From positions 660,001 to 692,000 of the forward strand of contig NC_007494.2 of NCBI RefSeq assembly GCF_000012905.2: DNA of 32,000 nt. Reading direction: 5' to 3'. A program made the position numbers and the translations under genes. The notes under the pieces are model-generated. The model saw nothing but the letters and a program-made list of their open reading frames with translations. It had not been told where the DNA came from and did no database searches. The first letter of the stretch is position 1, and each line of letters starts with the position of its first letter. Below, in pieces: positions 7,152 to 30,148 of the stretch. This stretch comes from Cereibacter sphaeroides 2.4.1 (GTDB lineage: Bacteria; Pseudomonadota; Alphaproteobacteria; Rhodobacterales; Rhodobacteraceae).

Positions 7152-8135
7152 ATGACCCTCACCCGCTTCGGAACCGCCCCTGACGGGCGGCCCGTCCAGC
7201 GCATCGCCCTGGCCGCAGGCGACCTCCGCCTGGCCCTGCTCGACCGAGGCGCCATCCTGCAGGACCTGCGTCTGGCCGGGATCGACTGGCCGCTCACGGC
7301 AGGCGCGTCCGACCTCGCGGCCTATCTCGGACCGCTCCGCTGGTTCGGCGCCATCGTCGGTCCGGTCGCGAACCGCATCGGCGGCGCCCGGGCCTGCATC
7401 AATGGCCGGCCGACCCGCTTCGTGCCGAACGAGGGCCGGACGCTCCTCCATTCCGGGGCGGCGGGAACCCATGCCCGGCACTGGCAGCCGGTCGAGGTCG
7501 AGGCGGGCCGCGCGCTCCTGCGGCTCGAACTCGCGGACGGCATCGACGGATTTCCCGGCAACCGGCGGCTCGAGGCCGAGTTCGTGCTGGACCCGCCCGC
7601 GACGCTCCGGCTGATCCTGACCGCGGTCACGGATGCGCCGACGCTGATGAACCTCGCCAACCACAGCTACTGGACCCTCGATCCCGAGCCCGGGATCGGC
7701 GGCCAGCAGCTGCAGATCGCGGCGGAGCACTGGCTTCCGGTCGAGGCCGGCCTGCCTACGGGCGAGATCCGCCCCGTATCCGGAGCGATGGACTTCCGCG
7801 CGGGCCGCCCCCTCGGAGAGACCGAGGGGATCGACCACAATTTCTGCCTCGCCAGTGCGCAGCGAGACCTGACCGAGGTGGCGCGCCTCACCGGCCGGTC
7901 GGGCGTCCGTCTCACTCTCGCCACCACCGCCCCGGGCCTGCAGGTCTATACCGGCCGCGAGATCGACAGCATGCCCTTCGCGGGCCACGGGGGCCGACCG
8001 CTCCGGGCCTTCGACGCCATTGCGCTCGAGCCGCAGCTCTGGCCGGACGCGCCGAACCGGCCGGAGTTCCCCCCGATCACCCTCGCCCCGGGCGAAACCT
8101 TCCGCCAGGAGACGCGCTTCTCCTTCTCCGCCTGA
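7152..8135 (+). CDS. Aldose 1-epimerase (mutarotase) family protein
   Basis: 327-aa ORF. The overall pattern (N-terminal ...DGRPV..I.L..G.L...LLD.GA.L..L, GP..NRI, HSG, NHSYW.LD) matches the galactose mutarotase-like fold family. Confidence 0.8.
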   Translation: MTLTRFGTAPDGRPVQRIALAAGDLRLALLDRGAILQDLRLAGIDWPLTAGASDLAAYLGPLRWFGAIVGPVANRIGGARACINGRPTRFVPNEGRTLLHSGAAGTHARHWQPVEVEAGRALLRLELADGIDGFPGNRRLEAEFVLDPPATLRLILTAVTDAPTLMNLANHSYWTLDPEPGIGGQQLQIAAEHWLPVEAGLPTGEIRPVSGAMDFRAGRPLGETEGIDHNFCLASAQRDLTEVARLTGRSGVRLTLATTAPGLQVYTGREIDSMPFAGHGGRPLRAFDAIALEPQLWPDAPNRPEFPPITLAPGETFRQETRFSFSA

Positions 8136-8213
8136 ACCGAGCCGGGTGCCGCGGCTCCGCGACGGGGGTCGTGCCGAGCGCGTCCACAGCTTGCCCGCTT
8201 CGGCAGGGGCAAG

Positions 8214-8349
8214 ACGCTCCCGGCATCCCGATCCATGCGCCCCCGTCCGGTTATCCTGCATCTTACCTGTTCATTCCCGTTTGACCTTTTGCCGGTAACT
8301 CTGTGGGGACCGCATCAGCGGACAACCCTGCAAGATATCGAGGAAGATA
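8214..8349 (+). promoter_or_regulatory. Probable gvpA promoter / 5' UTR (AT-richer patch with a TTGACC hexamer at 8281-8286 and SD GAGGAAG)
   Basis: GC drops locally directly upstream of gvpA. No convincing -10 element or sigma-54 element could be assigned. Confidence 0.3.
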
Positions 8350-8562
8350 ATGGCCATTGAGAAAAGCGTTGCCTCCGCTTCGATTGCGGAAGTCATCGAT
8401 CGCATTCTGGACAAGGGCGTCGTGATCGATGCCTTCGTGCGTGTATCCCTCGTCGGGATCGAGCTGATCGCCATCGAGGTCCGTGCCGTCGTGGCGTCGA
8501 TCGAGACCTGGCTCAAATATGCCGAGGCTGTAGGCCTCACGGTGGATCCCGCCACGACCTGA
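8350..8562 (+). CDS. gvpA: Major gas vesicle structural protein GvpA
   Basis: 70 aa, [63 protein letters not shown]: the canonical GvpA core. Confidence 0.95.
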
Positions 8563-8570
8563 GGCCGCGC

Positions 8571-10142
8571 TCAGACGGGAGATTGCTGCAAGAGGTGCGT
8601 AGCAAGCGCGGCAATTTCCTGTCCCAGGGGCCGGTCCGTCTCAAGCGGCGGGAACTGCTCGCGCAGGGCCTGCACCAGCTTCTTCCCCGCGGGAGACACC
8701 CCGTCTAGGCCGCTGCCGCAGCGCAGCTCCGCAGCTTGTGCAAGACAGAGAGCGAGGATCGCAAGGATCTCCGCCCAACGGTCGATCTTCTCGCGGCAGA
8801 GGCGCGCGGCGATGGTCCCAAGCGAGACCACATCCTGATTGGCGGCGTTCGTGGAGATCGAATGGATCGAGGCAGGTCCCGTGGCTCGCATCTCGGCCAG
8901 GAGCGCGGTCGCCGTCACCTGTGCGCCCATGAAGCCGGAATTCAACCCGGCGGGGCCCCGGTGGAGGAAGGGGGGCAGCCCACGGTTCAGCCTTTCATCT
9001 GTCAGACGTGCAATCTGGCGCTCCGCAAGGCCCGCCAGAACGGTGACGGCCGTGGCGAGCGCATCGGACGTCAGCGCCACATGCTGGCCCATGAAATTGC
9101 CCCCGTGCAGGGCGGGCACGCTGCCATCGGGCGGAAACACCGGATTGTCGGTCACCGCGTTCAGCTCGATCGTCAGCACCCGGTCATGCCATGCGAGCGT
9201 GTCGAAGCCCGCCCCGAGAACCTGCGGAGCGCAGCGCAGGCTGTAGGCATCCTGCCCCGCCTCCGGCTCCGTCCCGATATCGCCGGCGTCGAGCCTCCGC
9301 TCGGCAATGACGTGCCGGACCACCCGCGCGCTGCCGTCCACGCGGGCGCGCAGCCTCGCTGCGGCGTCCTTCTGTCCGGGATGCGGCCGCAGGTCGGACA
9401 GTGCCGCGGCCCATGCCTCGGTCCGGCCTCTCAGACATTCCGCAAGCAGGGCCGTCAACGCCACCGCCCAGTTGCCGAGATGGCGGCAGGCGTGAGCATT
9501 CACCAGCGCGATCCCGGTCATGGCGGAGGTCCCGTTGACCAGCGCCAGTGCATCGCGATGGGAGAGATCGAGCGGTTGCAGCCGTCCGCGCCGGAGCCCT
9601 TCTGCGCCGTCAAGCCGCGTCCCGTCCCGGTCCAGGAAGTCTCCCCGGCCCTGGAGGCAGAGCACCATATGCGCAAGCGGTGTCAGGTCACCCGACGCGC
9701 CCACCGTGCCGCGGCTGGGAACGGCCGGAGCGAGCTCGGAATTGAGCAGGTCGATCAGGCGAGCGATGGTCCCCTCGCTGGCACCGGAGGCTCCCTGAGC
9801 GATCGACACCAGACGCGCCAGAACCATGGCGCGCGCCGTCGTCCAGTCAAGCACCGGTCCCACGCCGCTGGCCAGATGATGGACAAGATTGGCCTGCAGC
9901 GTTCGGACATTCTCACCTGAGATCAGGCGGTTCGCAAGGGGACCGAAGCCGGTTGTCAGTCCGTAGACATGGCGCGCCTCGCGGATGACAGCGCCGAGCC
10001 GCGCTTCGGACGCACGGCACCGGTCGCGCGCCGGAGGGGCAAGGACAATCCGCGCGCCGCCGCTCGCCACGGCATGGGCCTGGTCCAGATCGATGTGGCG
10101 ATCCAGCTCGACGGCCGGCTTCGGGGGGCTCATGGCGAGCAT
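8571..10142 (-). CDS. tal: Tyrosine ammonia-lyase (MIO-dependent HAL/PAL family), produces p-coumarate
   Basis: 523 aa from the ATG at 10142 (SD AGGGAG 8 nt upstream). MIO triad GASGDLTPLAH with Ala149-Ser150-Gly151 at 9690-9698. His89-Leu90 (9873-9878) is the Tyr-selectivity pair described for RsTAL. The ORF-track start at 10151 is a GTG three codons upstream. Confidence 0.92.
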   Translation of the reverse strand: MLAMSPPKPAVELDRHIDLDQAHAVASGGARIVLAPPARDRCRASEARLGAVIREARHVYGLTTGFGPLANRLISGENVRTLQANLVHHLASGVGPVLDWTTARAMVLARLVSIAQGASGASEGTIARLIDLLNSELAPAVPSRGTVGASGDLTPLAHMVLCLQGRGDFLDRDGTRLDGAEGLRRGRLQPLDLSHRDALALVNGTSAMTGIALVNAHACRHLGNWAVALTALLAECLRGRTEAWAAALSDLRPHPGQKDAAARLRARVDGSARVVRHVIAERRLDAGDIGTEPEAGQDAYSLRCAPQVLGAGFDTLAWHDRVLTIELNAVTDNPVFPPDGSVPALHGGNFMGQHVALTSDALATAVTVLAGLAERQIARLTDERLNRGLPPFLHRGPAGLNSGFMGAQVTATALLAEMRATGPASIHSISTNAANQDVVSLGTIAARLCREKIDRWAEILAILALCLAQAAELRCGSGLDGVSPAGKKLVQALREQFPPLETDRPLGQEIAALATHLLQQSPV

Positions 10143-10205
10143 TGGCTTCACTCCCTGTCTTCTCGCCGAAGGTAGTGGAAGCTGGTTAATGCAGAGTTTC
10201 TTGCT

Positions 10206-10538
10206 TCAGATCGTCCGCCCCAGCGGGCCCAGATCGAGCGAGAGATCCGCGGGCGTCAGGCCGAAACGGGCCGCCATCTCGTGGATGGCCGCCTCGGCCC
10301 GCATCAGTGTCGTGCCAAGCTGCTCTTGCTGACTCTCGCTCAGCGAGCCCGCCTCCATCCTGCGGATCGCCTGCAACTCCATGATCTGCCTCAGCATCTC
10401 CATCAGCCCCAGCAGAATACGGGCCAGATCATGCTCGAGCCGGTCCGGGTCGAGCGCGATGCGGGGCGCCGTGACCGGGGCCTCCGTCGGAGGCAAGCGG
10501 TCGTCGCGCAGCAGGAGCGGAGGAAAAGGATATGTCAT
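10206..10538 (-). CDS. gvpK: Gas vesicle protein GvpK
   Basis: 110 aa; LARILLGLMEMLRQIMELQAIRRMEAGSLSESQQEQLGTTLMRAE...LDLGPLG matches the GvpK family core. The ATG at 10538 overlaps the upstream stop (ATGA). Confidence 0.9.
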   Translation of the reverse strand: MTYPFPPLLLRDDRLPPTEAPVTAPRIALDPDRLEHDLARILLGLMEMLRQIMELQAIRRMEAGSLSESQQEQLGTTLMRAEAAIHEMAARFGLTPADLSLDLGPLGRTI

Positions 10539-11140
10539 GCTGTCTCCCAACTGATGAAGGCGTAAGGCGGCCAAGGGCCTGTCACGGTGCAGGCGGACCA
10601 GAGGGCATCGCCCACCCGCAGGCGTTCGCGAAGCTCGTGAAGCACAGGATGCGTCTCTGCCGCCGGAACCAAAAGATTGACCTGAACTTCGTCCTGAAGC
10701 CGCCCCGGGATGCAGCGAACCTCTCCGAGCAGCGACATGATCTGCATGAGCACCGTGCGCAGCCGCGCCTGATGCGCGGAGGCATCCCGGCGGGCGCGCA
10801 GCCAGCCCGCCCCAGACGCGGCTGCATCGGGCAAAAGGGGGGCAATCAGCCGCGCCGACACCGTCAGTTGCCGCTGCCGGCTGAAACGATCGATCTCTTC
10901 GGCGAGCGCATTCGTCCGCCTTCCACACCAGGCGATCGCCTCATCGACGGCAATTGTGGCCGCGGGTGGAAACGGCAGGAAGGTCTCGCAGTCCCGCATC
11001 GCAGCCAGATGCAGCCGAACGCGGCTGCGCGCATCGCCCGCCATGTCGTGCGGAGCGCAGACGAGGTGAAGCCCCGCGCAGGAAAGCGCGCAGCAGGTCG
11101 CCGGAACAGGTCCTGCGCGAGCGAGGCCGATGGGTATCAT
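10535..11140 (-). CDS. GvpF/GvpL-family gas vesicle protein (paralogue 4, short)
   Basis: The C-terminal TGPWPPYAF motif is diagnostic of GvpF/L. The ATG at 11140 overlaps the upstream stop (ATGA). The ORF-track start at 11161 is less likely. Confidence 0.78.
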   Translation of the reverse strand: MIPIGLARAGPVPATCCALSCAGLHLVCAPHDMAGDARSRVRLHLAAMRDCETFLPFPPAATIAVDEAIAWCGRRTNALAEEIDRFSRQRQLTVSARLIAPLLPDAAASGAGWLRARRDASAHQARLRTVLMQIMSLLGEVRCIPGRLQDEVQVNLLVPAAETHPVLHELRERLRVGDALWSACTVTGPWPPYAFISWETA

Positions 11141-11361
11141 GCTGCGTCCGGCACTCTGCATTGCAGCCTATCCGGGTTCGCCAGCAGCAGGTCGAGCCCG
11201 AGGAAGACGAGATCCACATCCGCAATCGTAAGCCAAAGCTCCCCCCGGATCGCGATGCCTTGTGACAGAAGGGCATCCACCACATCGACGAGGCGCGTTT
11301 CGCTGCTTTGCAGCGCTTCCTCCGCCGTCGCGAACTGGAGGGTCGGGGCTGAGTCAGTCAT
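11137..11361 (-). CDS. Small GvpA/J/M/S-family gas vesicle protein
   Basis: 74 aa; RLVDVVDALLSQGIAIRGELWLTIADVDLVFLGLDLLL resembles the hydrophobic GvpA-family core (GvpS/GvpM-like). Its start overlaps the upstream gene by 8 nt. Confidence 0.72.
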   Translation of the reverse strand: MTDSAPTLQFATAEEALQSSETRLVDVVDALLSQGIAIRGELWLTIADVDLVFLGLDLLLANPDRLQCRVPDAA

Positions 11362-12052
11362 GACCGCGGGTCTCCGGCAGGAAGGAAAAGGGAGCGCAGG
11401 GGCCGATCAATCGGACGGAAAGGGCGAGGCGAGATCCGGCACGGGAAGAGGCCTCTGCGGCCTCCAGCAGGCCTGGCACCCGATCCCGCGCGACAAGAAG
11501 GGAGAGATCAAGCAGCGGCCCGTCGGGCTTCAATGGACGCGCCGACGCCGAGCAGGACAGCGAGGCCAGCTCTTCGGCCGTGGCTCTCGCAAAGCCGGTT
11601 CGCTCGCGCGCCAGATGACGTCTCTGCTCGTGACGAGCGGAGCGGGCCTTGAGGAAGGCGGATCCCGAGGCCGGAGCTGGCGCGGCCCCGTCCGCGACCT
11701 GTTCCGCGATCAATTGCGCGACATACTCCGCCCGGCCCGCCAACCGTTCCATTCCGGCATCAAGGGTTGCACGTTCGGCGTCCAGATGGCGCTTCACGGC
11801 GGCAATACCAGTAAAGGCCGCCCCGAGAGCGACCGGGAGGACATCCTCGGTCGCGGCATAGGCGGACAGGATGGCGTTCTGCGCAAGAGCGGCCTGCACG
11901 GCCCAGTCAGGCGAAGCGGGATCCGGGGGCAGACGATCAAGCGACAGGAGAATCGCCGCGTAGCCGTCACCGTCCAGACGCAGGTGCGGAGAGGTGATCG
12001 CGGGGCTGATCCCAAGGCCGGAGACCACTCCCAGAAGAAGGAGGCCGCTCAT
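11354..12052 (-). CDS. GvpF/GvpL-family gas vesicle protein (paralogue 3)
   Basis: MSGLLLLGVV... N-terminus, an HNAIL-like segment (AQNAILSAYAATEDVLPVALGAAF) and C-terminal IGPCAPFSF. The ATG at 12052 overlaps the upstream stop (ATGA). Confidence 0.8.
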   Translation of the reverse strand: MSGLLLLGVVSGLGISPAITSPHLRLDGDGYAAILLSLDRLPPDPASPDWAVQAALAQNAILSAYAATEDVLPVALGAAFTGIAAVKRHLDAERATLDAGMERLAGRAEYVAQLIAEQVADGAAPAPASGSAFLKARSARHEQRRHLARERTGFARATAEELASLSCSASARPLKPDGPLLDLSLLVARDRVPGLLEAAEASSRAGSRLALSVRLIGPCAPFSFLPETRGHD

Positions 12053-12927
12053 GCGGCGTCCTCCAGATCGGAGGGCACGGCCTGACCTTCTGACCAGATA
12101 CGCACCAGATGCAGGTCTCCACCCGATGCGGCGCATCGTGTGAGCAGATCCAGCACGGCGGCCGCGGCAAGAATTTCTGCCCGCTCGGCCTCTGACGCGC
12201 GCAGCAGAAGGTCGCGCCGGAGCGCCCGGAGGCGGATCGGATCAACTGGCCCTTCCAGATCGAACCGGTGACGGGCGCGGCGGATCGCTGCCGAAGATAC
12301 TCTGCGGAAGTTGAGACTGGCGAAGGAAACGGGCGGCGACGGGCCGATCCGGCGGATCCTGAGCCCCTCTGTCCAGAGCGCATCAATCTGCTCGAGAGAT
12401 CGGTCAAGATCGTCGGTGCGGGTCTGCAGCAGAAGAAGTGCCTGGTTGGCAAGCATATCTTCCCGCAGCGGGAGATTGACGTGCCGCTCCGCCACCCGCG
12501 CCAGGGCGTCCGCAATCCGGTGAGTGAACCTGAGCCGAAGGTCTTCGGCCGTCTCGTCGGGGTCCGTGCGTTTCGGAACCAGCGCCGCGTGCCATTGGAC
12601 GAGAACCTGAAACTGCACCCGTCCGGCGAGACGCCGCAGCTCCTGTCTGAGCCGCGGGCTGTTTGCCGCAAGCGCGGCGGCGGCTTCGGCTGGTGTCAGG
12701 CAATTGCCGGTGAGGACGGGCAGAACCGTGCCGAAGGCCATCAGTCGCTCGAGCACCGCCTGCCTGCAGGCAGCATGTTCCAGAAGCGCGCGGCGACCGC
12801 TCAGCAGCCCGGGTGGCATACCGAGGATGGCGGTCAAGCCCGCCTCGCAAATGGCCTCGGTGCCTTCGGGCAGGACGGAAGGCGGATGGCCCTCTAGCAC
12901 GGCGACGACTTCCCGGAGCCTCATCAC
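12049..12927 (-). CDS. GvpF/GvpL-family gas vesicle protein (paralogue 2) with ~87-aa C-terminal extension
   Basis: GvpF/L core with LEHAACRQAVLERLMAFGTVLPVLTG and IGPSPPVSFA, followed by an extra Arg/Leu-rich domain. The start is GTG 12927 or ATG 12924; both overlap the upstream stop. Confidence 0.8.
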   Translation of the reverse strand: MMRLREVVAVLEGHPPSVLPEGTEAICEAGLTAILGMPPGLLSGRRALLEHAACRQAVLERLMAFGTVLPVLTGNCLTPAEAAAALAANSPRLRQELRRLAGRVQFQVLVQWHAALVPKRTDPDETAEDLRLRFTHRIADALARVAERHVNLPLREDMLANQALLLLQTRTDDLDRSLEQIDALWTEGLRIRRIGPSPPVSFASLNFRRVSSAAIRRARHRFDLEGPVDPIRLRALRRDLLLRASEAERAEILAAAAVLDLLTRCAASGGDLHLVRIWSEGQAVPSDLEDAA

Positions 12928-13181
12928 GCGCCCCTTTCAAGCGAAAAGATCATGCATTCTCGAGTGGCCGCGAAGCACTGCAATGCCTGCAGAACGTTCA
13001 GACCATCCGCGATGGCAGCTTCTCCTTCCAGCAACAGGTCCTCGACGGGGGTGCGGAACGATGTGTCTCGTGTGGCACCGCCACGAGGAATCGCGAGCCT
13101 TGCTGGGATTTGCTGGCCTGAGGGCGCGCAGCCGCGCGAACCAGCCTTCGGCCCTTTCACTTTCACCGCCGGAAATCTCAT
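12924..13181 (-). CDS. Hypothetical 85-aa protein inside the gvp operon (no family recognised)
   Basis: The ATG at 13181 overlaps the gvpG stop (ATGA) and its TGA overlaps the next gene's start. It has a basic N-terminal half and a helical acidic C-terminal half. GC3 is only ~64%, so coding status is uncertain. Confidence 0.4.
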   Translation of the reverse strand: MRFPAVKVKGPKAGSRGCAPSGQQIPARLAIPRGGATRDTSFRTPVEDLLLEGEAAIADGLNVLQALQCFAATRECMIFSLERGA

Positions 13182-13411
13182 CTCGCCGTTCCTTTGAGCC
13201 GCTCGAGAAGATCGAGTTCAATGGCGTCGTAGGTCTCCTCGGAAAGCTCGCCCGCGAGCAGTTGCCGCTCGGCTTCCACCAGAGCCGCCCGCAGCGCAGC
13301 GGGATCGTTCCAACTCTGTTCGGCAGCCTCGCCGATGCGGGCGGCAATCCACAGGGTTCCGTCGAACGGACCCCGAAACGGCAGCGTCAGGAGAGAGGTG
13401 AGCAGGCCCAT
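13178..13411 (-). CDS. gvpG: Gas vesicle protein GvpG
   Basis: 77 aa, MGLLTSLLTLPFRGPFDGTLWIAARIGEAAEQ...LLAGELSEETYDAIELDLLERL matches the GvpG family pattern. Its start shares one nt with the gvpF stop (TGATG). Confidence 0.85.
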   Translation of the reverse strand: MGLLTSLLTLPFRGPFDGTLWIAARIGEAAEQSWNDPAALRAALVEAERQLLAGELSEETYDAIELDLLERLKGTAR

Positions 13412-14175
13412 CAGGCAACCTCTTCGCGGCGGGGAGAGAGAACCAGATCGACAAAATTGAACAGGGGCACCGGTCCTATCACTCGAACGGACGGTTCGGC
13501 TGTCGGGGCGAAGCTGCAATCTGCCGCGGCTTTCACAAGCGCGGCAGCCAGGCGATCCTGGGCTCCGTCCTCGACCAACACATCGACGGCAATGACCTGA
13601 ACGTCGGAGTCCGGCACCCGCAGACGATGATCGACCCAAAGCGGACGGAGGCTCTGGAAGAGGAGACGTTGCGTCTCTCCCCGCCGGGCATCCAGCCGCT
13701 CTGCCAGTCGGCGCCCGAACTCGGCCTGTGCCATGGGATCGGGCCTGCGCAGGGCCAGAAGCCGCGCCCGCTCCGCCGCAAGGTCGGGCGCGGTGGCGAG
13801 GGTAGCGGCGAGCGCCGGTTCTCGGGGAAACGACAGGCGCAGACCGAGTTCCACCCGGCCGCGCACGCGGTCGAAGGCGGCGCAGAGTTCGGTCAGGCGC
13901 GACGCCAGCATGGCCGCGACCTCGGCGAGGGTCGATGCCATCATCCCGAACCGCATCGGAAGCAAGTTGCCGAACCAGGCCGCCGCCTCGAGCACCCGGG
14001 TATGCGCCAGGAGCAGGCGGCGCCGCGGCAGAATGTCGGCCTCTGTGGCGGAACTGTAGATCAGGATGCCTCCTGGAAGCCTCGCGAGTGCGATGGGCCC
14101 CGTGACCCCCGCCATGCCGGCAAGCACCTCGTGGCCGGAGGCGGGTTCCTCGAGCAGGCCGTAGAGATAGATCAT
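13411..14175 (-). CDS. gvpF: Gas vesicle protein GvpF
   Basis: 254 aa; MIYLYGLL... N-terminus, HTRVLEAAAWFGNLLPMRFG and C-terminal VIGPVPLFNF are typical of GvpF. Confidence 0.9.
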   Translation of the reverse strand: MIYLYGLLEEPASGHEVLAGMAGVTGPIALARLPGGILIYSSATEADILPRRRLLLAHTRVLEAAAWFGNLLPMRFGMMASTLAEVAAMLASRLTELCAAFDRVRGRVELGLRLSFPREPALAATLATAPDLAAERARLLALRRPDPMAQAEFGRRLAERLDARRGETQRLLFQSLRPLWVDHRLRVPDSDVQVIAVDVLVEDGAQDRLAAALVKAAADCSFAPTAEPSVRVIGPVPLFNFVDLVLSPRREEVA

Positions 14176-14705
14176 GGCGCCTCCGGAAGCGGGGCGGTCA
14201 GGTCAAGGATGCCGCTCTTGAGCGAGATCCGGATGTCGGCGAGCCCGACGCCGGGCGGGAGGGGGAACCGCCCCTCGTAACGCCGGCCGCTCCCTTCGGC
14301 CGAAATCAGGAGATCGCCTGCGTCGAGCTCCAGAGTGAGGTCCTCCTCGGCAACACCAGGTAAATCCGCCTGAAGCTGCCACGTCCGGCCCACCGTCGCG
14401 ATGTCCGCCAGAATGGGCCGCGCGGGCGCAGGTGGTCTCTCGGCGGTCTCCTCAGGCACCGGGCCCGGTTCGGGTTCCGCGTTGCCGAAGTCGGAGGCGT
14501 ACCGCACGCGGATGCGCGTCTCGGTGCGGATCGGGCCCATCCCGACGTCGATCGTGTGGTCCCGCCGGATCTCCCTGCTCTGGCCCGACTCGAGGCGACC
14601 TGTCATGTCGGAAAGGGCGCTGCCGAGCGCGCTGAGGAGGCGGCCGAACCTCAGCTCGATGTCAGCGGTCGTCCTGCCGGGGCCCGGCTTCTTCTCGTCG
14701 CTCAT
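14172..14705 (-). CDS. gvpH: Hsp20/alpha-crystallin-domain gas vesicle protein (GvpH-like)
   Basis: The C-terminal ACD-like segment is WQLQADLPGVAEEDLTLELDAGDLLISAEG...FPLPPGV...ISLKSGILDLTAP. It sits between gvpJ and gvpF and overlaps the gvpF start (ATGA). Confidence 0.75.
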   Translation of the reverse strand: MSDEKKPGPGRTTADIELRFGRLLSALGSALSDMTGRLESGQSREIRRDHTIDVGMGPIRTETRIRVRYASDFGNAEPEPGPVPEETAERPPAPARPILADIATVGRTWQLQADLPGVAEEDLTLELDAGDLLISAEGSGRRYEGRFPLPPGVGLADIRISLKSGILDLTAPLPEAP

Positions 14706-14706
14706 C

Positions 14707-15021
14707 TCATCCCTCGCGTGCTGCGGCCAGTTGCCCGATCTGGGTCTCGATCCGCTCGAGCCGGTCCAGCAGGGCGGCCGAACCGTCGGAGGCAGGCGCC
14801 TGCGTGATGCAGAGGCGAGGATCGCTCTCCCACCAGTTGATCCCCATCTCCCGCGCCTTGTCGACGGTGGCGACCAGAAGGCGCAGGCGGATCGTCAGGA
14901 GCTCGATCCCCACCAGCGAGATCGAAATGTCGCCGGCAATCACGATCCCCTTGTCGAGGATCCGCTCGAGGACGTCGGCCAGACTGTCCTGCTGGAGCGG
15001 GCTCTGCATCTGAAAGCTCAT
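14707..15021 (-). CDS. gvpJ: Gas vesicle protein GvpJ (GvpA family)
   Basis: 104 aa; SLADVLERILDKGIVIAGDISISLVGIELLTIRLRLLVATVDKAREMGINWWE is the GvpJ-type core. Confidence 0.9.
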   Translation of the reverse strand: MSFQMQSPLQQDSLADVLERILDKGIVIAGDISISLVGIELLTIRLRLLVATVDKAREMGINWWESDPRLCITQAPASDGSAALLDRLERIETQIGQLAAAREG

Positions 15022-15329
15022 GACGGCGCGCCCTCCTCGCGGTGGTAGCGCCCGAGGCGCTGGAAGCCGCCGACGCGGCCCTGCGGCGTCACCCGGATCT
15101 CGTAGGCACAGAGCAGGTCGTTGCGCCCGATCTTGGCCGCGCTTTCGATCACGTCGATCACGACGCGCCAGTCGCCGCCCTCGGTCTGCGCGCAGTTCGC
15201 CACCGCGTCGATGCGGCCGCCGTTCATGGTGGTGAAGGCCCGCCGCGCCACGGCGATGACTTCGAGCATCGTCAGGGCGGCCTGACCGGGCTCGGCGCTG
15301 AAGGCGAGGGTCTTGGGCTGATCCATCAT
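15018..15329 (-). CDS. gvpO: Gas vesicle protein GvpO
   Basis: 103 aa; ...GGDWRVVIDVIESAAKIGRNDLLCAYEIRVTPQGRVGGFQRLGRYHR matches the GvpO family pattern. SD GGGGGAAGGA. Confidence 0.8.
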   Translation of the reverse strand: MMDQPKTLAFSAEPGQAALTMLEVIAVARRAFTTMNGGRIDAVANCAQTEGGDWRVVIDVIESAAKIGRNDLLCAYEIRVTPQGRVGGFQRLGRYHREEGAPS

Positions 15330-15342
15330 CCGTCCTTCCCCC

Positions 15343-15486
15343 TCAGCGGCCCAGCAGGGCGAGCAGGATCTCGCGCTCGCGCTTACGCCGCTCCAGATCC
15401 TGCGCGCAGCGGGCCATCCGGCTCCGGGCAGCCTCCAGCGCCTTCTCGAGCCGGCTGACGTCGAACTCGAGCCGCACCAGATGCAT
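15343..15486 (-). CDS. Coiled-coil micro-protein (47 aa; alternatively 74 aa from the ATG at 15567) between gvpN and gvpO
   Basis: MHLVRLEFDVSRLEKALEAARSRMARCAQDLERRKREREILLALLGR is preceded by a strong SD GAAGGAGG 5 nt upstream. The longer form would start at an ATGA overlap with the gvpN stop, but its extra 27 aa are low-complexity R/P/A. Confidence 0.45.
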   Translation of the reverse strand: MHLVRLEFDVSRLEKALEAARSRMARCAQDLERRKREREILLALLGR

Positions 15487-15563
15487 CGCCGCCTCCTTCG
15501 GTGTCCGGGCGAGGGCCGGGGACGTCCTGCATGGCCGCCGGGCCGAGGTCGCTTTCGGGCTCT

Positions 15564-16514
15564 TCATCGGGCGGTCTCTCCTGGCGTGGGGGCGGCCAAC
15601 TTTGCCTCGAACGCGGCCGCATCGGCCTCGAGGCCGCGGCCCCTCAGCACGTCCGCGGCGATCTCGGCCAAGGCCGCGTCGCTCAGCCGGCCCGCGAGAC
15701 GCAGTGGCGCGGCGAGCCGGGCGACGAGAATGGCCGTGCGCATCGACGGCGGCGCCTGCATCTCGCCCGAGCGCTGGACGGACAGGATCAGATCCACGAT
15801 GCGGCGCGCCGTGGCGGGATCGAGGCCGCTGCGCAGCGCGACGATGCCCGCGAGCGTGGGCGCCGAAGGCTCCTCGAGCCGCAGGGTCACCATCCGGTCG
15901 ATCAGGGCGTCGGGGGCTGCCTTGACCCCCTGATACTCATGCGGGTTCGAGGTCAGCAGGACGCGGAAGTCGGGATGCGCCTCGATATACTGGTGCCGGC
16001 TCGCGCCGTCTGTCGAGACAAGCACCCCCTCTTCGAGCACCGAGAGAAGCGCGGCATTCGCCTCGGGCGAGGCACGGGTGAATTCGTCGTAGATAAAGGT
16101 CTGGCCGCACCGCATGGCCTGCCCGAGAATCGACTCCTTCCAGTCGATCCGCGCGCTCTGTTCGGTGCGCCGGACGCTCTGGATATAGCGGTCCACGACG
16201 CTGGTGACGGTCTGGCCGATCTCGCCGCCGATGAAGTCGCGGCTGCCGAGCCATTCGTTGCCGGTCATGAAGGCCACGGGCCGCCCGAGCGCCTGCGCGA
16301 TGCGCAGCGCGAGCGTCGTCTTGCCGAGGCCTGCCGGTCCGGCGAGATGGACGCAGACGCCGGCCCGGGCATATCCCAGCGCGCGGGCAAAGAGCGCCTC
16401 CGTCTCGGCATTCTGGAAATATCGGCCGCTCCGCCGGAGGCCGAGCCAGGGATTCTCGACCAGGGCGGCGTCGATACCGGCCGCATGCGGTAAGGATGGG
16501 CTCAGGACAGTCAC
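15564..16514 (-). CDS. gvpN: Gas vesicle AAA+ ATPase GvpN
   Basis: 316 aa; Walker A GPAGLGKTT, Walker B FIYDEF, AAA_5-like architecture. It is the first gene of the gvp operon. The start appears to be GTG at 16514. Confidence 0.9.
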   Translation of the reverse strand: MTVLSPSLPHAAGIDAALVENPWLGLRRSGRYFQNAETEALFARALGYARAGVCVHLAGPAGLGKTTLALRIAQALGRPVAFMTGNEWLGSRDFIGGEIGQTVTSVVDRYIQSVRRTEQSARIDWKESILGQAMRCGQTFIYDEFTRASPEANAALLSVLEEGVLVSTDGASRHQYIEAHPDFRVLLTSNPHEYQGVKAAPDALIDRMVTLRLEEPSAPTLAGIVALRSGLDPATARRIVDLILSVQRSGEMQAPPSMRTAILVARLAAPLRLAGRLSDAALAEIAADVLRGRGLEADAAAFEAKLAAPTPGETAR

Positions 16515-16621
16515 GTTCGGCGACCTCGTTCTTCCGGTCGCCCCAGAAGACGCGAGTCAGTTTAAGGACGGATTAAGCCGAACCCGATTTATCCAGGCGC
16601 GCTACGGCTGTCCTCGAACCG
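16515..16621 (-). promoter_or_regulatory. Probable gvpN-operon promoter / leader (AT-richer patch, inverted repeat GGATTAA-N11-TTTATCC at 16570-16594, leader hairpin 16519-16542)
   Basis: This is the only sizeable non-coding gap upstream of the 14-gene unit. No sigma-factor consensus was confidently matched. Confidence 0.3.
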
Positions 16622-27405: not shown

Positions 27406-28572
27406 TCAGACGGCCTTCAGCAGGGCGTCGGTCAGGTCCGTCCGTTCCCACGAGAAGCCGCCGTCCGCTTCCGGCGCCCGGCCGAAGTGACCGTAGGCCG
27501 AGGTGCGGGCATAGATCGGCCGGCAGAGGTTCAGATGCTCGCGGATGCCGCGCGGCGTGAGGTCCATGCAGTCCGCCACGGCCTTCTCGATCTGCGCCGC
27601 ATCCACCTGGCCCGTGCCATGGGTGTCGACATAGATCGAGAGCGGCTTCGCCACGCCGATGGCATAGGAGACCTGCAGCGTGCAGCGCTCGGCGAGGCCC
27701 GCGGCCACGACGTTCTTGGCGAGGTAGCGCGCGGCATAGGCGGCCGAGCGGTCGACCTTGGTCGGATCCTTGCCCGAGAAGGCGCCGCCGCCGTGGGGCG
27801 CGGCCCCGCCGTAGGTGTCCACGATGATCTTGCGGCCCGTCAGGCCCGCATCCCCGTCCGGCCCGCCGATGACGAAGGTCCCGGTTGGGTTCACCCACCA
27901 TTCGGTCGCCTCGGTGATCCAGCCCTCGGGCAGCACTTCGCGGATGTAGGGCTCGACGATGGCGCGGATGTCGTCGGAGGTCTGCTCCTCATGGGCGTGC
28001 TGGGTCGAGAGCACGATCGAGCGCACCTCGACGGGCTTGCCGTTCTCGTAGCGCAGCGAGAGCTGCGACTTGGCGTCGGGACGCAGGTCGGGCTCCTGAC
28101 CCGATTTGCGCACCTCGGCCAGCCGGCGCAGGATCGCATGCGAATACTGGATCGGCGCCGGCATCAGCTCGGGCGTCTCGCGGCAGGCATAGCCGAACAT
28201 GATGCCTTGGTCGCCCGCGCCGTCCTTGTCGACGCCCTGCGCGATATGGGCCGACTGGCGGTGCAGGAAGTTCTGCACCTCGATGGTGCGCCAGTGGAAT
28301 TCCTGCTGCTCGTAGCCGATGTCCTTCACGCAATCGCGGACGATGCCGTCCACGCGCTCCATGAACTCGTCCAGCTTCTGGGGATCGGAGAGGCCGACTT
28401 CGCCTCCGACAACGACGCGGCCGGTCGTGGCGAAGGTTTCGCAGGCGACCCGGGCGGTGGGTTCCTCGGCCAGGAAGGTATCGAGGACGGCATCCGACAC
28501 GCGATCGCACAGCTTGTCGGGGTGACCTTCCGAGACGGACTCGGAAGTGAAGACGTAGTTCATGCGGGACAT
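27406..28572 (-). CDS. metK: S-adenosylmethionine synthase
   Basis: 388 aa from [31 protein letters not shown]; [10 protein letters not shown] and [16 protein letters not shown] motifs. Confidence 0.96.
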
Positions 28573-28578
28573 GGGAAG

Positions 28579-28625
28579 TGCTCCGTTGGGGTTAACCCCG
28601 TCACGCCAGGAAGCCGTTGTGACGG
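28579..28625 (-). promoter_or_regulatory. Probable SAM/SAH riboswitch in the metK leader
   Basis: Minus-strand RNA: CCGUCACAACGGCUUCCUGGCGUGACGGGGUUAACCCCAACGGAGCA. The P1 stem is CCGUCAC/GUGACGG. Loop GCUUC can pair with the 3' GGAGC, which contains the SD 9 nt before the AUG. The CACAACGGCUUCCUG core matches my recollection of the Rhodobacterales-specific SAM/SAH motif found upstream of metK. Confidence 0.7.
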
Positions 28626-28660
28626 TTGCCCTCCGCGCTACACCCCTGAGGGGAGGCGGG

Positions 28661-30148
28661 TCAAGCGCCCCGAGGCCTGCGCGTCGCCACAAGAAGCGCC
28701 GCGAGGGCGAGGAGGGCCACCAGAACCGGCAATTCTCCCAGACGGGAGAAGGGGGTAGCCGGAAAGGCCCCCGGCAGTGCGACATCTTTGTAGCCCGCCT
28801 CTCCGAGCGGCAGGTCGCTCAGGACGCGGCCGCGCGCATCGACCAGCGCCGAGATGCCGGTATTGGCCGACCGGACCAGAGGCAGGCCGAGCTCGATCGC
28901 GCGCAGCCGCGTCTGGGCCAGATGCTGGTAGGGGCCGTTGAAGGTGCCGAACCAGGCGTCGTTGGTGATCTGCAGGATCCAGTCGGGCCGCTCGGCAGTG
29001 CGCAGGTCCTGCGGGAAGACCGCCTCGTAGCAGATGAGCGGAAGGACCTTGCCGAGGCCCGGGCCGAGGTCGAGCACCTGCGGCCCGGGGCCTGCCGAAT
29101 AGCCGAACCCTTCCTGCGCCGCGAAGGCGCGCAGGCCGAAGAGCTCGAACATCAGATCCCCCATCGGGACATATTCGCCGAAGGGCGCCAGATGATGCTT
29201 GTCGTAGAGGCCCGCGATCTCGCCCGCGGGCCCCACGACCACGAGGCTGTTCCAGAAGCGCCAGCCCTCGCCGCGCTGGATGCCCGCGATGACCGGCGCG
29301 CCCCGCCCGGCGGCGGCGATCTCGGAGAGAAGCCCCGGCGCGCGGTCGAGGAGATAGGGCACCGAGGTCTCGGGCCAGATCACGAGGTCCGGTCGCGGAC
29401 CGTCGGACGTGAGCGTGAGGAGGCGCGAAAAATGGGTGGCGGCCAGATCGGGATCCCATTTCATGCGCTGCTCGGCATTGGGCTGCACGATCCGCAGCAC
29501 GGGGCCCGCGGGCGGCGGCTCGGGCAGCGACAGACGCCAGAGGCCGAAGCCCGCCATCGCCGCGAGAAGCGCCGCCGAGAGGCCGAGACCCCGCGCCCGT
29601 CCCGCGATGGGCAGGGCCGCGGCCAGCGCGGTGAGAAGCGTGAGGCCCGAGGGGCCGATGAGGCTCGCCACCTGCACGGGCCAGGCGCCGACCCAGATGT
29701 GGCCGATGAGCGCCCAGGGAAATCCCGTCAGTACATAGCCGCGGGCCAGTTCCGCCGCGCCCAGGGCCGTGGCGAAGGCGATGGGCCGCCGCCAGCCGGC
29801 GCCGAGATGGGCGAGCCAGCCCGCGAGCGCCCAGAAGAGCGCCAGACCGAAGGAGATCAGCACCAGCGCAAAGGGCGCCATCCAGCCGTAGGTCTCGGCG
29901 TCGATGAGGAAGGGCTCGACGATCCAGCTGAGCGCGGCGGCGAAATGCCCCGCGCCGCCGAAGAGCGCGAGGAGCGCGGCCTGCCTGCGGGTCGCGGCGC
30001 CGGCCACGATCCCGATCAGGGCGGCGAGGGCAGGCAGGGCCAGCCACCAGAGGCCGAAGGGCGCCTGCCCCGAGGCCAGAGCCACGCCCGCTCCGAAGGC
30101 AAGGGCGAGGCGCAGGGCCATGGGGTGGGTTCGAACGAGGGCGATCAT
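28661..30148 (-). CDS. lnt: Apolipoprotein N-acyltransferase
   Basis: 495 aa; multiple N-terminal TM helices and a CN-hydrolase domain ([17 protein letters not shown]). Confidence 0.9.

Follow-up and report, generated by a model that had tools for sequence, protein, structure and literature searches.

A tyrosine ammonia-lyase gene within the gas-vesicle cluster of Cereibacter sphaeroides: deep synteny with gvp genes and a putative CtrA-type promoter

The tal gene of Cereibacter sphaeroides 2.4.1, which encodes a tyrosine ammonia-lyase (TAL), lies among the gas-vesicle (gvp) genes of contig NC_007494.2. We analyzed it within a stretch of 32,000 nucleotides (positions 660,001 to 692,000 of the forward strand; 68.7% G+C), called the window here, whose own numbering is used for coordinates unless another locus is named. 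The gene (orthologue of RSP_3574, annotated hutH) occupies 8571-10142 on the minus strand, and its 523-amino-acid product matches the Pfam family Lyase_aromatic (PF00221) over the full length of the profile (E = 3.1e-150; residues 18-495 on profile positions 2-466 of 466). Every residue is the same as in the chains of PDB entries 2O6Y, 2O7B and 2O7D, which carry the deposited name 'Putative histidine ammonia-lyase'. We take 2O6Y and 2O7B to be the Rhodobacter sphaeroides tyrosine ammonia-lyase, RsTAL; its TAL activity, known from the structural and biochemical literature, presumably extends to the tal product through sequence identity. Within the family of histidine, phenylalanine and tyrosine ammonia-lyases (HAL, PAL and TAL) that depend on 4-methylideneimidazole-5-one (MIO), and for which the RsTAL crystal structures 2O6Y, 2O78 and 2O7B are available, the tal product is the same as the wild-type entries 2O6Y and 2O7B, with no difference at the protein level. 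The MIO-forming Ala-Ser-Gly triad is found at residues 149-151, inside VGASGDL (147-153), and in the 2O6Y chain sequence the MIO residue stands in place of this triad. The substrate-selectivity pair His89-Leu90 lies inside LVHHLAS (residues 86-92). Both features had been named in an initial annotation of this DNA and were confirmed by our motif check. The product falls under every NCBIfam equivalog cut-off (for hutH, 428 bits against a cut-off of 539), which accounts for the gene having been annotated as a histidine ammonia-lyase. RSP_3574 is the gene of the 4-coumarate reaction in the iRsp1095 metabolic model (PMC3152904), and a published orthologue table equates RSP_3574 (hutH) with R. capsulatus rcc01072, RSP_3573 with gvpA, RSP_3575 with gvpK and RSP_3582 with gvpN (PMC4158056 supplement). 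Judged by its sequence, tal is a genuine TAL, the characterized R. sphaeroides enzyme, and it would form p-coumarate by deamination of tyrosine, thereby supplying the precursor from which photoactive yellow protein (PYP) obtains its chromophore.

The gene immediately upstream of tal on the same strand is gvpK. The gvpK stop codon (TGA, 10208-10206) and the tal start codon (ATG, 10142-10140) enclose a 63-nucleotide (nt) spacer (10143-10205, minus strand), which we consider a candidate tal-proximal promoter region. Reading of the spacer revealed a Shine-Dalgarno sequence, AGGGAG, at 10156-10151, 8 nt ahead of the tal ATG, in addition to the motif TTAACCAG that is discussed below. A consensus scan over 7900-11400 found no terminator-like or sigma-70-like sites, the minus-strand RNA of 10110-10260 folded no more stably than shuffled sequence (z = +0.53), and Rfam gave no match near tal. 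The initial annotation had described tal as lying 63 nt after the gvpK stop on the same strand, with its own Shine-Dalgarno sequence and no terminator in the gap, and each part of that description was borne out, the first two by direct reading of the sequence and the last by the consensus scan and the fold.

The minus-strand gvp genes were delineated by Pfam searches of the window's proteins together with gene calls on contig L031. The string opens with gvpN (15564-16514), an AAA+ ATPase gene and orthologue of RSP_3582 (Pfam AAA_5, E = 6e-17), and continues through orf74 (15343-15567; no Pfam or NCBIfam family, conserved in L001-L004 at 43-99% identity), gvpO (15018-15329; Pfam GvpO), gvpJ (14707-15021; Pfam Gas_vesicle), an hsp20-like gene (14172-14705; Pfam HSP20), gvpF (13411-14175; Pfam GvpL_GvpF, E = 2e-45), gvpG (13178-13432; Pfam GvpG, E = 1e-20) and orf85 (12924-13181; no Pfam or NCBIfam match). 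Next come two GvpF/L-family genes (12049-12924 and 11354-12052; Pfam GvpL_GvpF and the L031 gene calls), a gene for a small 74-amino-acid protein of the GvpA/J/S family (11137-11361; Pfam Gas_vesicle, E = 2.6e-10), orf169 (10535-11044), gvpK (10206-10538; 110 amino acids, orthologue of RSP_3575, Pfam GvpK, E = 5e-32) and, finally, tal. The conserved gvp-cluster gene orf169 has a weak similarity to the GvpL/F C-terminus that lies below the curated cut-off (Pfam GvpL_GvpF, E = 6e-4). Neighbors in this string mostly overlap by 1-22 nt, as at ten of the twelve junctions from gvpN to gvpK, or lie no more than 13 nt apart. Real gaps occur only twice, ahead of orf169 (92 nt; 11045-11136, minus strand) and ahead of tal (63 nt). 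Translational coupling, which links most genes of the gvp operon, does not extend to tal.

On the other side of tal, the gene for the major shell protein, gvpA (8350-8562, plus strand; 70 amino acids, orthologue of RSP_3573, Pfam Gas_vesicle, E = 2e-16), runs convergently, with 8 nt separating the two stop codons. The C. johrii protein (L001) is 100% identical to the gvpA product, and those of the other loci share 84-94% identity with it. Given that gvpA converges on tal 8 nt past the tal stop, tal lies within the gvp cluster, flanked on both sides by gvp genes. The initial annotation had presented tal as the last gene of the gas-vesicle operon, which holds for the minus-strand gene string but does not place tal at the edge of the cluster, since gvpA follows beyond its stop codon.

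The two genes also share their 3' ends. After the gvpA stop and the 8-nt spacer, a 16-bp hairpin can be formed on the plus strand at 8574-8623, a segment that belongs to the final ~50 nt of tal coding sequence. The paired sequence includes 3 G-U pairs, and because of these the hairpin should be weaker on the tal-sense strand; the minimum-free-energy fold of that strand did not contain the hairpin, and the region was less stable there (-41.7 versus -47.5 kcal/mol). Its consensus structure is kept in L001, L004, L015 and L029, all of which have the convergent layout, with 7 pairs changed on both sides. The hairpin is probably the 3' stem-loop of the gvpA mRNA, serving as a terminator or stabilizer.

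To place this arrangement in an evolutionary context, relatives of TAL were scanned with one genome per species, which gave 25 loci, and gvp and PYP genes were then located around them by tblastn. After addition of an R. capsulatus-type contig (L029) and collapse of near-identical pairs, 16 independent lineages with a TAL of at least 53% identity remained. In 14 of these 16, tal has genes for gas-vesicle proteins no more than 10 kb away, the exceptions being L006 and the short contig L017; none of 8 more distant TAL homologues (at most 45% identity) is linked to gvp genes. The linkage of tal to gvp genes is thus more than chance, and it is deep and widespread in alphaproteobacteria. In 10 lineages tal is found within ~1 kb of gvpA, and all orientations are represented: the pair is convergent in the window, L004, L005, L015 and L029, codirectional in L007, L010/L013 and L014, and divergent in L009/L011 and L021. 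The His-Leu pair and the Ala-Ser-Gly triad are kept in all gvp-linked homologues, and His-Leu is replaced in L018-L020 and L022. We considered that the gvp-linked homologues might be HALs and rejected this, given that all of them carry His-Leu.

The same-strand junction of gvpK and tal is itself shared by 4 of the 16 lineages (the window with L001, L003, L004 and L015), in which the gap measures about 45-85 nt; in the other lineages tal stands beside gvpA, or a pyp module intervenes between gvpK and tal. We also considered that the sphaeroides layout arose by a recent deletion in one strain, and this was rejected because the layout is common to L003, L004 and L015. The TALs that share it are only 57-65% identical, so that the gvpK-tal layout is a feature of a clade. 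The adjacency is therefore not confined to one strain, which was the point on which the initial annotation had proposed a synteny survey.

The genes for PYP (pyp) and for the ligase that activates its chromophore (pcl) have a different distribution. When PYP, pCL and the other proteins of the pyp module were searched against the 32-kb window by tblastn, there was no match better than E = 0.01, in line with the earlier statement that neither gene is present. The same annotation had concluded that any partner genes are unlinked and had proposed a look for pyp and pcl in the rest of the genome. We located them on chromosome 2 of C. sphaeroides ATCC 17029 (CP000578.1; L026), where orf142-pyp-orf188-orf166-pcl form one operon, and the 10 kb around pyp contain neither gvp genes nor tal. 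The evidence for this separate pyp-pcl locus thus comes from strain ATCC 17029 and not from the window. The PYP encoded there (P0199, 124 amino acids) has the APC motif, and the pcl product scored 643 bits against the 4-coumarate-CoA ligase equivalog TIGR02372, for which the cut-off is 335. The Cereibacter PYP was reached with a Rhodobacter-type PYP query; when Halorhodospira halophila PYP was the query, the best 120 matches were gamma-proteobacterial and halophile PYPs only, and the Cereibacter PYP was not among them.

The operon of ATCC 17029 represents a conserved five-gene module, orf142-pyp-orf181/188/207-orf163/166/165-pcl, which spans 9548-12700 in L026, 9549-12786 in L029 and 9522-12952 in L032 (numbering of each locus) and is also present in L002, L008, L012 and L013. 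The three conserved companion proteins of PYP in this module (orf142, orf181/188 and orf163/166), which are always encoded alongside it, matched no Pfam or NCBIfam family, and we regard them as candidate PYP signaling partners. The orf181 and orf163 families are distant paralogs of each other. The module lies within or flanks the gvp cluster in L002, L008, L012, L013, L029 and L032; tal is physically linked to both pyp and pcl in L002, L008, L012, L013 and L029, and the distance from tal to pyp is under 10 kb in 5 of the 16 lineages. The pyp gene sits between tal and gvpN in L002, L008, L012 and L013. In a metagenome-assembled genome labeled 'Caulobacterales' (L009 and L032), the cluster is bordered by the pyp module on its gvpK side and by tal on its gvpA side.

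The R. capsulatus type offers the closest comparison with the window. In L029 the gene order is a PAS-containing methyl-accepting chemotaxis protein (MCP) gene; gvpA forward; tal, orf295, orf161 and orf55 in reverse; orf142, pyp, orf181, orf163 and pcl forward; and gvpK through gvpN in reverse. R. capsulatus SB1003 (rcc01051-rcc01073) has the same gvp gene set and order from gvpN to gvpK as the window, the same convergent tal/gvpA pair with its 3' hairpin, the same His-Leu TAL and, as in the window, a CtrA-type TTAACC upstream of tal together with CtrA-controlled gvp genes. What differs is the ~5 kb between gvpK and tal in the R. capsulatus type (L029), which consists of orf142-pyp-orf181-orf163-pcl on the opposite strand plus orf55-orf161-orf295 and is absent from the window. 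The sphaeroides layout can be described as the capsulatus layout minus this ~5-kb block, with the pyp-pcl part relocated. In our interpretation, tal between gvpK and gvpA would be what the C. sphaeroides lineage keeps of a gvp/pyp-pcl/tal supercluster that is widespread among alphaproteobacteria.

Two further features of these neighborhoods were recorded. A domain of ~55 amino acids at the C-terminus of orf295 (L029, 7757-8644) recurs beside tal or gvpA in seven loci (L002, L005, L009, L011, L013, L014 and L021); it shows weak similarity to extensions at the C-termini of NuoE and L21 from alphaproteobacteria and is absent from the window. A PAS-containing MCP is encoded beside gvpA, tal or pyp in L029 (3997-5676), L007, L009, L011, L014 and L021, and in L032 (6731-8832) it is a response regulator plus an MCP.

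CtrA binds the half-site TTAACCAT and the box TTAA-N7-TTAA, as known from work on Caulobacter and Rhodobacter. The intergenic region upstream of gvpN contains a motif match to this box, TTAAGGACGGATTAA (16562-16576), which is the only perfect TTAA-N7-TTAA in the window, where 0 were expected from 100 shuffles. Motifs of the TTAA type were also seen upstream of gvpN in L003, L004, L009, L012 and L029. Gas vesicles and the expression of a gvpN::uidA fusion in R. sphaeroides depend on the CckA/ChpT/CtrA system (PMC9430884, PMC11999139); in C. sphaeroides this fusion serves to report CtrA-controlled expression, and strains in which CtrA is active form gas vesicles (PMC11999139, PMC9430884). The perfect box upstream of gvpN agrees with this published dependence. 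With respect to the known CtrA regulon of Rhodobacter/Cereibacter (Fla2 flagella, chemotaxis and gas vesicles), gvpN shares the perfect TTAA-N7-TTAA, and the putative membership of tal in the R. sphaeroides regulon rests on a half-site-like motif and on coexpression modules from R. capsulatus.

The half-site-like motif is the TTAACCAG of the gvpK-tal spacer (10189-10182), with 7 of its 8 positions in agreement with the CtrA half-site TTAACCAT. Across the lineages, 6 of 16 (the window with L001, L002, L005, L006, L015 and L029) have a sense-strand TTAACC ahead of the tal start codon, at a distance of 47-85 nt, and in five of these six the distance is 47-58 nt. This exceeds the number expected, which was 0.16 from the locus-wide density and 0.24 from shuffled upstream regions, and 0 of 5000 shuffles reached 6. 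Upstream of tal in L006 and L015 the half-site TTAACCAT is exact, and L005 and L029 have TTAACC-N5-TTAG, that is, TTAA-N7-TTAG. In the window and L015, the TTAACC-bearing tal is preceded by gvpK, whereas orf295 takes that place in L029, a gene for an unrelated regulator in L006, and a gene other than gvpK in L002 and L005. Because the upstream gene differs between loci, the TTAACC element belongs to tal, and L006 has it even though no gvp genes are nearby. We infer that CtrA binds this motif to drive tal, so that the spacer would contain a tal-proximal CtrA-type promoter, with or without read-through from upstream; such read-through from the gvpN promoter may add to expression, since nothing in the gap looks like a terminator.

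Published expression data from R. capsulatus bear on the same question. There, hutH/TAL (rcc01072) falls in the darkturquoise coexpression module with gvpO, gvpJ and other gvp-operon genes; the pink module holds pyp, pcl, rcc01064, rcc01065, rcc01067, gvpN, gvpA and the adjacent MCP; and gvpK is in the orange module (PMC4158056 supplement). The modules in which tal, pyp, pcl and the gvp genes fall are CtrA-regulon modules, and hutH has no operon assignment in the supplement, yet it is coexpressed with gvp genes (PMC4158056). The initial annotation had inferred that p-coumarate synthesis is coexpressed with gas-vesicle assembly. On the basis of synteny and the R. capsulatus modules, coregulation is likely; read-through into tal as the last cistron is only partly supported and probably does not account for all of its expression, given the 63-nt gap where most other genes overlap and the enrichment of TTAACC.

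Taken together, these observations lead us to an explanation to which we assign a probability of roughly 65%: RsTAL was retained from a gvp/pyp-pcl/tal supercluster and is induced with the gvp genes under CtrA, mainly from its own promoter. The tal gene would most likely be switched on with the gas-vesicle genes as part of a CtrA-controlled program of motility, chemotaxis and buoyancy. It would be driven mainly by the putative TTAACC-bearing promoter in the 63-nt spacer, to which read-through from the CtrA-dependent gvpN promoter may contribute. p-Coumarate, and hence holo-PYP, would then be made while cells build gas vesicles. A functional connection from tal and PYP to gas vesicles is backed by the deep synteny and by the published R. 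capsulatus coexpression modules.

Several observations weigh against this explanation. About 2 half-site matches of the 7/8 kind are expected by chance per 32 kb, so the match in the spacer is not significant by itself. No TTAACC lies upstream of tal in 10 of the 16 lineages, including L003 and L004, which have the gvpK-tal layout. In L026 and L029, the region ahead of the pyp operon showed no CtrA-like box, and we found no convincing full CtrA box upstream of either gvpA or the pyp operon. We did not find an experiment in the literature that links PYP to gas vesicles, and a 2025 survey of the PYP family lists the function of R. sphaeroides PYP as unknown.

The alternative that survives best is that tal lacks its own promoter and simply forms the final cistron of a gvpN-gvpK-tal transcript from the CtrA-dependent gvpN promoter. 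The same-strand arrangement across a 63-nt gap with no terminator-like hairpin or T-tract, and with no sigma-70 consensus, speaks for this alternative. Likewise, the short gap between gvpK and tal is conserved in four lineages whose TALs are only 57-65% identical, and in L003 and L004 it has no TTAACC. Even so, tal is set apart from most operon genes by its lack of translational coupling, and TTAACC precedes it in six lineages whatever the upstream gene, among them L006, whose locus is free of gvp genes, and the R. capsulatus type, in which tal and gvpK are kept apart by a divergently oriented pyp operon. The absence of an operon assignment for a coexpressed hutH in R. capsulatus (PMC4158056) points the same way. 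Transcription of tal by read-through only is plausible, but it fits the motif data less well than a promoter of its own does, and we regard it as rather unlikely, perhaps a one-in-four prospect in our judgment.

A second alternative is that tal is a genomic relic that no longer has a function, left behind by accident when the pyp-pcl block moved and now expressed independently of gas-vesicle formation. The location of pyp and pcl elsewhere in C. sphaeroides is consistent with such a relic, as are the TAL lineages L006 and L017, which have no gvp genes in the available sequence, and the fact that two recent surveys of the PYP family do not mention gas vesicles. However, the linkage of tal to gvp genes has outlasted many rearrangements and persists in convergent, codirectional and divergent forms across 14 of 16 lineages whose proteins are no more than 50-65% identical, which argues for selection; coexpression of tal with gvp genes has been measured in R. 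capsulatus (PMC4158056); and the 3' hairpin of gvpA is interlocked with the coding end of tal. Given that the linkage survives rearrangement and that there are coexpression data, we judge accidental retention to be unlikely, and distinctly more so than read-through.

A role of p-coumarate at gas vesicles that does not involve PYP (modification of Gvp proteins, a signal, or a UV screen in floating cells) could be suggested by the tighter and more frequent adjacency of tal to gvpA (<1 kb in 10 of 16 lineages) than to pyp (within 10 kb in 5), and by the listing of 4-coumarate as a possible secreted electron sink in iRsp1095 (PMC3152904), but it is very improbable, given that on longer contigs pyp and pcl sit at the far side of the same gvp cluster (L032), that the clusters, apart from pcl, yielded no enzyme for acyl transfer or any other use of p-coumarate, and that no lineage was shown to have tal-gvp without pyp.

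Returning to the explanation we favor, in which tal is induced with the gvp genes under CtrA, the downstream step would be PYP signaling that acts on buoyancy or on the neighboring chemoreceptor pathway, and the signal may go to chemotaxis rather than to gvp expression. A broader and more tentative model, against which we would still place the odds, is that PYP provides the blue-light input of a CtrA-controlled planktonic program in Rhodobacterales. In such a model, tal, pcl and pyp would be induced with the gvp genes, holo-PYP would act through orf142, orf181/188 and orf163/166 and/or the PAS-MCP, and the output would be a light-dependent tuning of gas-vesicle formation or of vertical positioning. 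If true, this would be the first biological function for a Rhodobacter PYP and the first proteobacterial photoreceptor-to-gas-vesicle pathway.

The same chromophore pathway operates in the pyp-pcl-tal system of Halorhodospira halophila, in which the p-coumarate produced by TAL is activated by pCL and joined to the cysteine of PYP (PMC12826048). In that organism pyp, pcl and tal make up a single operon and negative phototaxis is mediated by PYP, whereas in C. sphaeroides tal stands apart from pyp and pcl, among gvp genes. The role of Rhodobacter PYP has been an open question since the 1990s. An association of PYP, tal and pcl with gas-vesicle genes in R. capsulatus was reported by Kyndt et al. 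(2004, Biochemistry 43:1809), according to PMC3646047, where Loktanella SE-62 is named in addition, and in a review table the pathway presumed for Rhodobacter PYP is 'gas vesicles (cell buoyancy)' (PMC6273459). The initial annotation had mentioned that such an association was already remarked on for Rhodobacter, and the citation of Kyndt et al. in PMC3646047 supports this; because the association was published in 2004, the finding of tal among gvp genes is a correct rediscovery. What the present analysis adds is the depth of the tal/gvp linkage, a conserved CtrA-type element at tal, the interlocked 3' ends of gvpA and tal, and the three companion proteins of PYP. The gas-vesicle context was not testable in 2004, when Rhodobacter was not known to form gas vesicles in the laboratory. 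Because CtrA-active C. sphaeroides strains make gas vesicles, the link between PYP and gas vesicles is now open to experiment.

Elsewhere in the window, a SAM/SAH riboswitch was identified at 28579-28628 on the minus strand (Rfam RF01727, 61 bits, E = 4e-11), upstream of metK (27406-28785). The other two TTAACC matches in the window are due to the GGGGTTAACCCC palindrome of this riboswitch.

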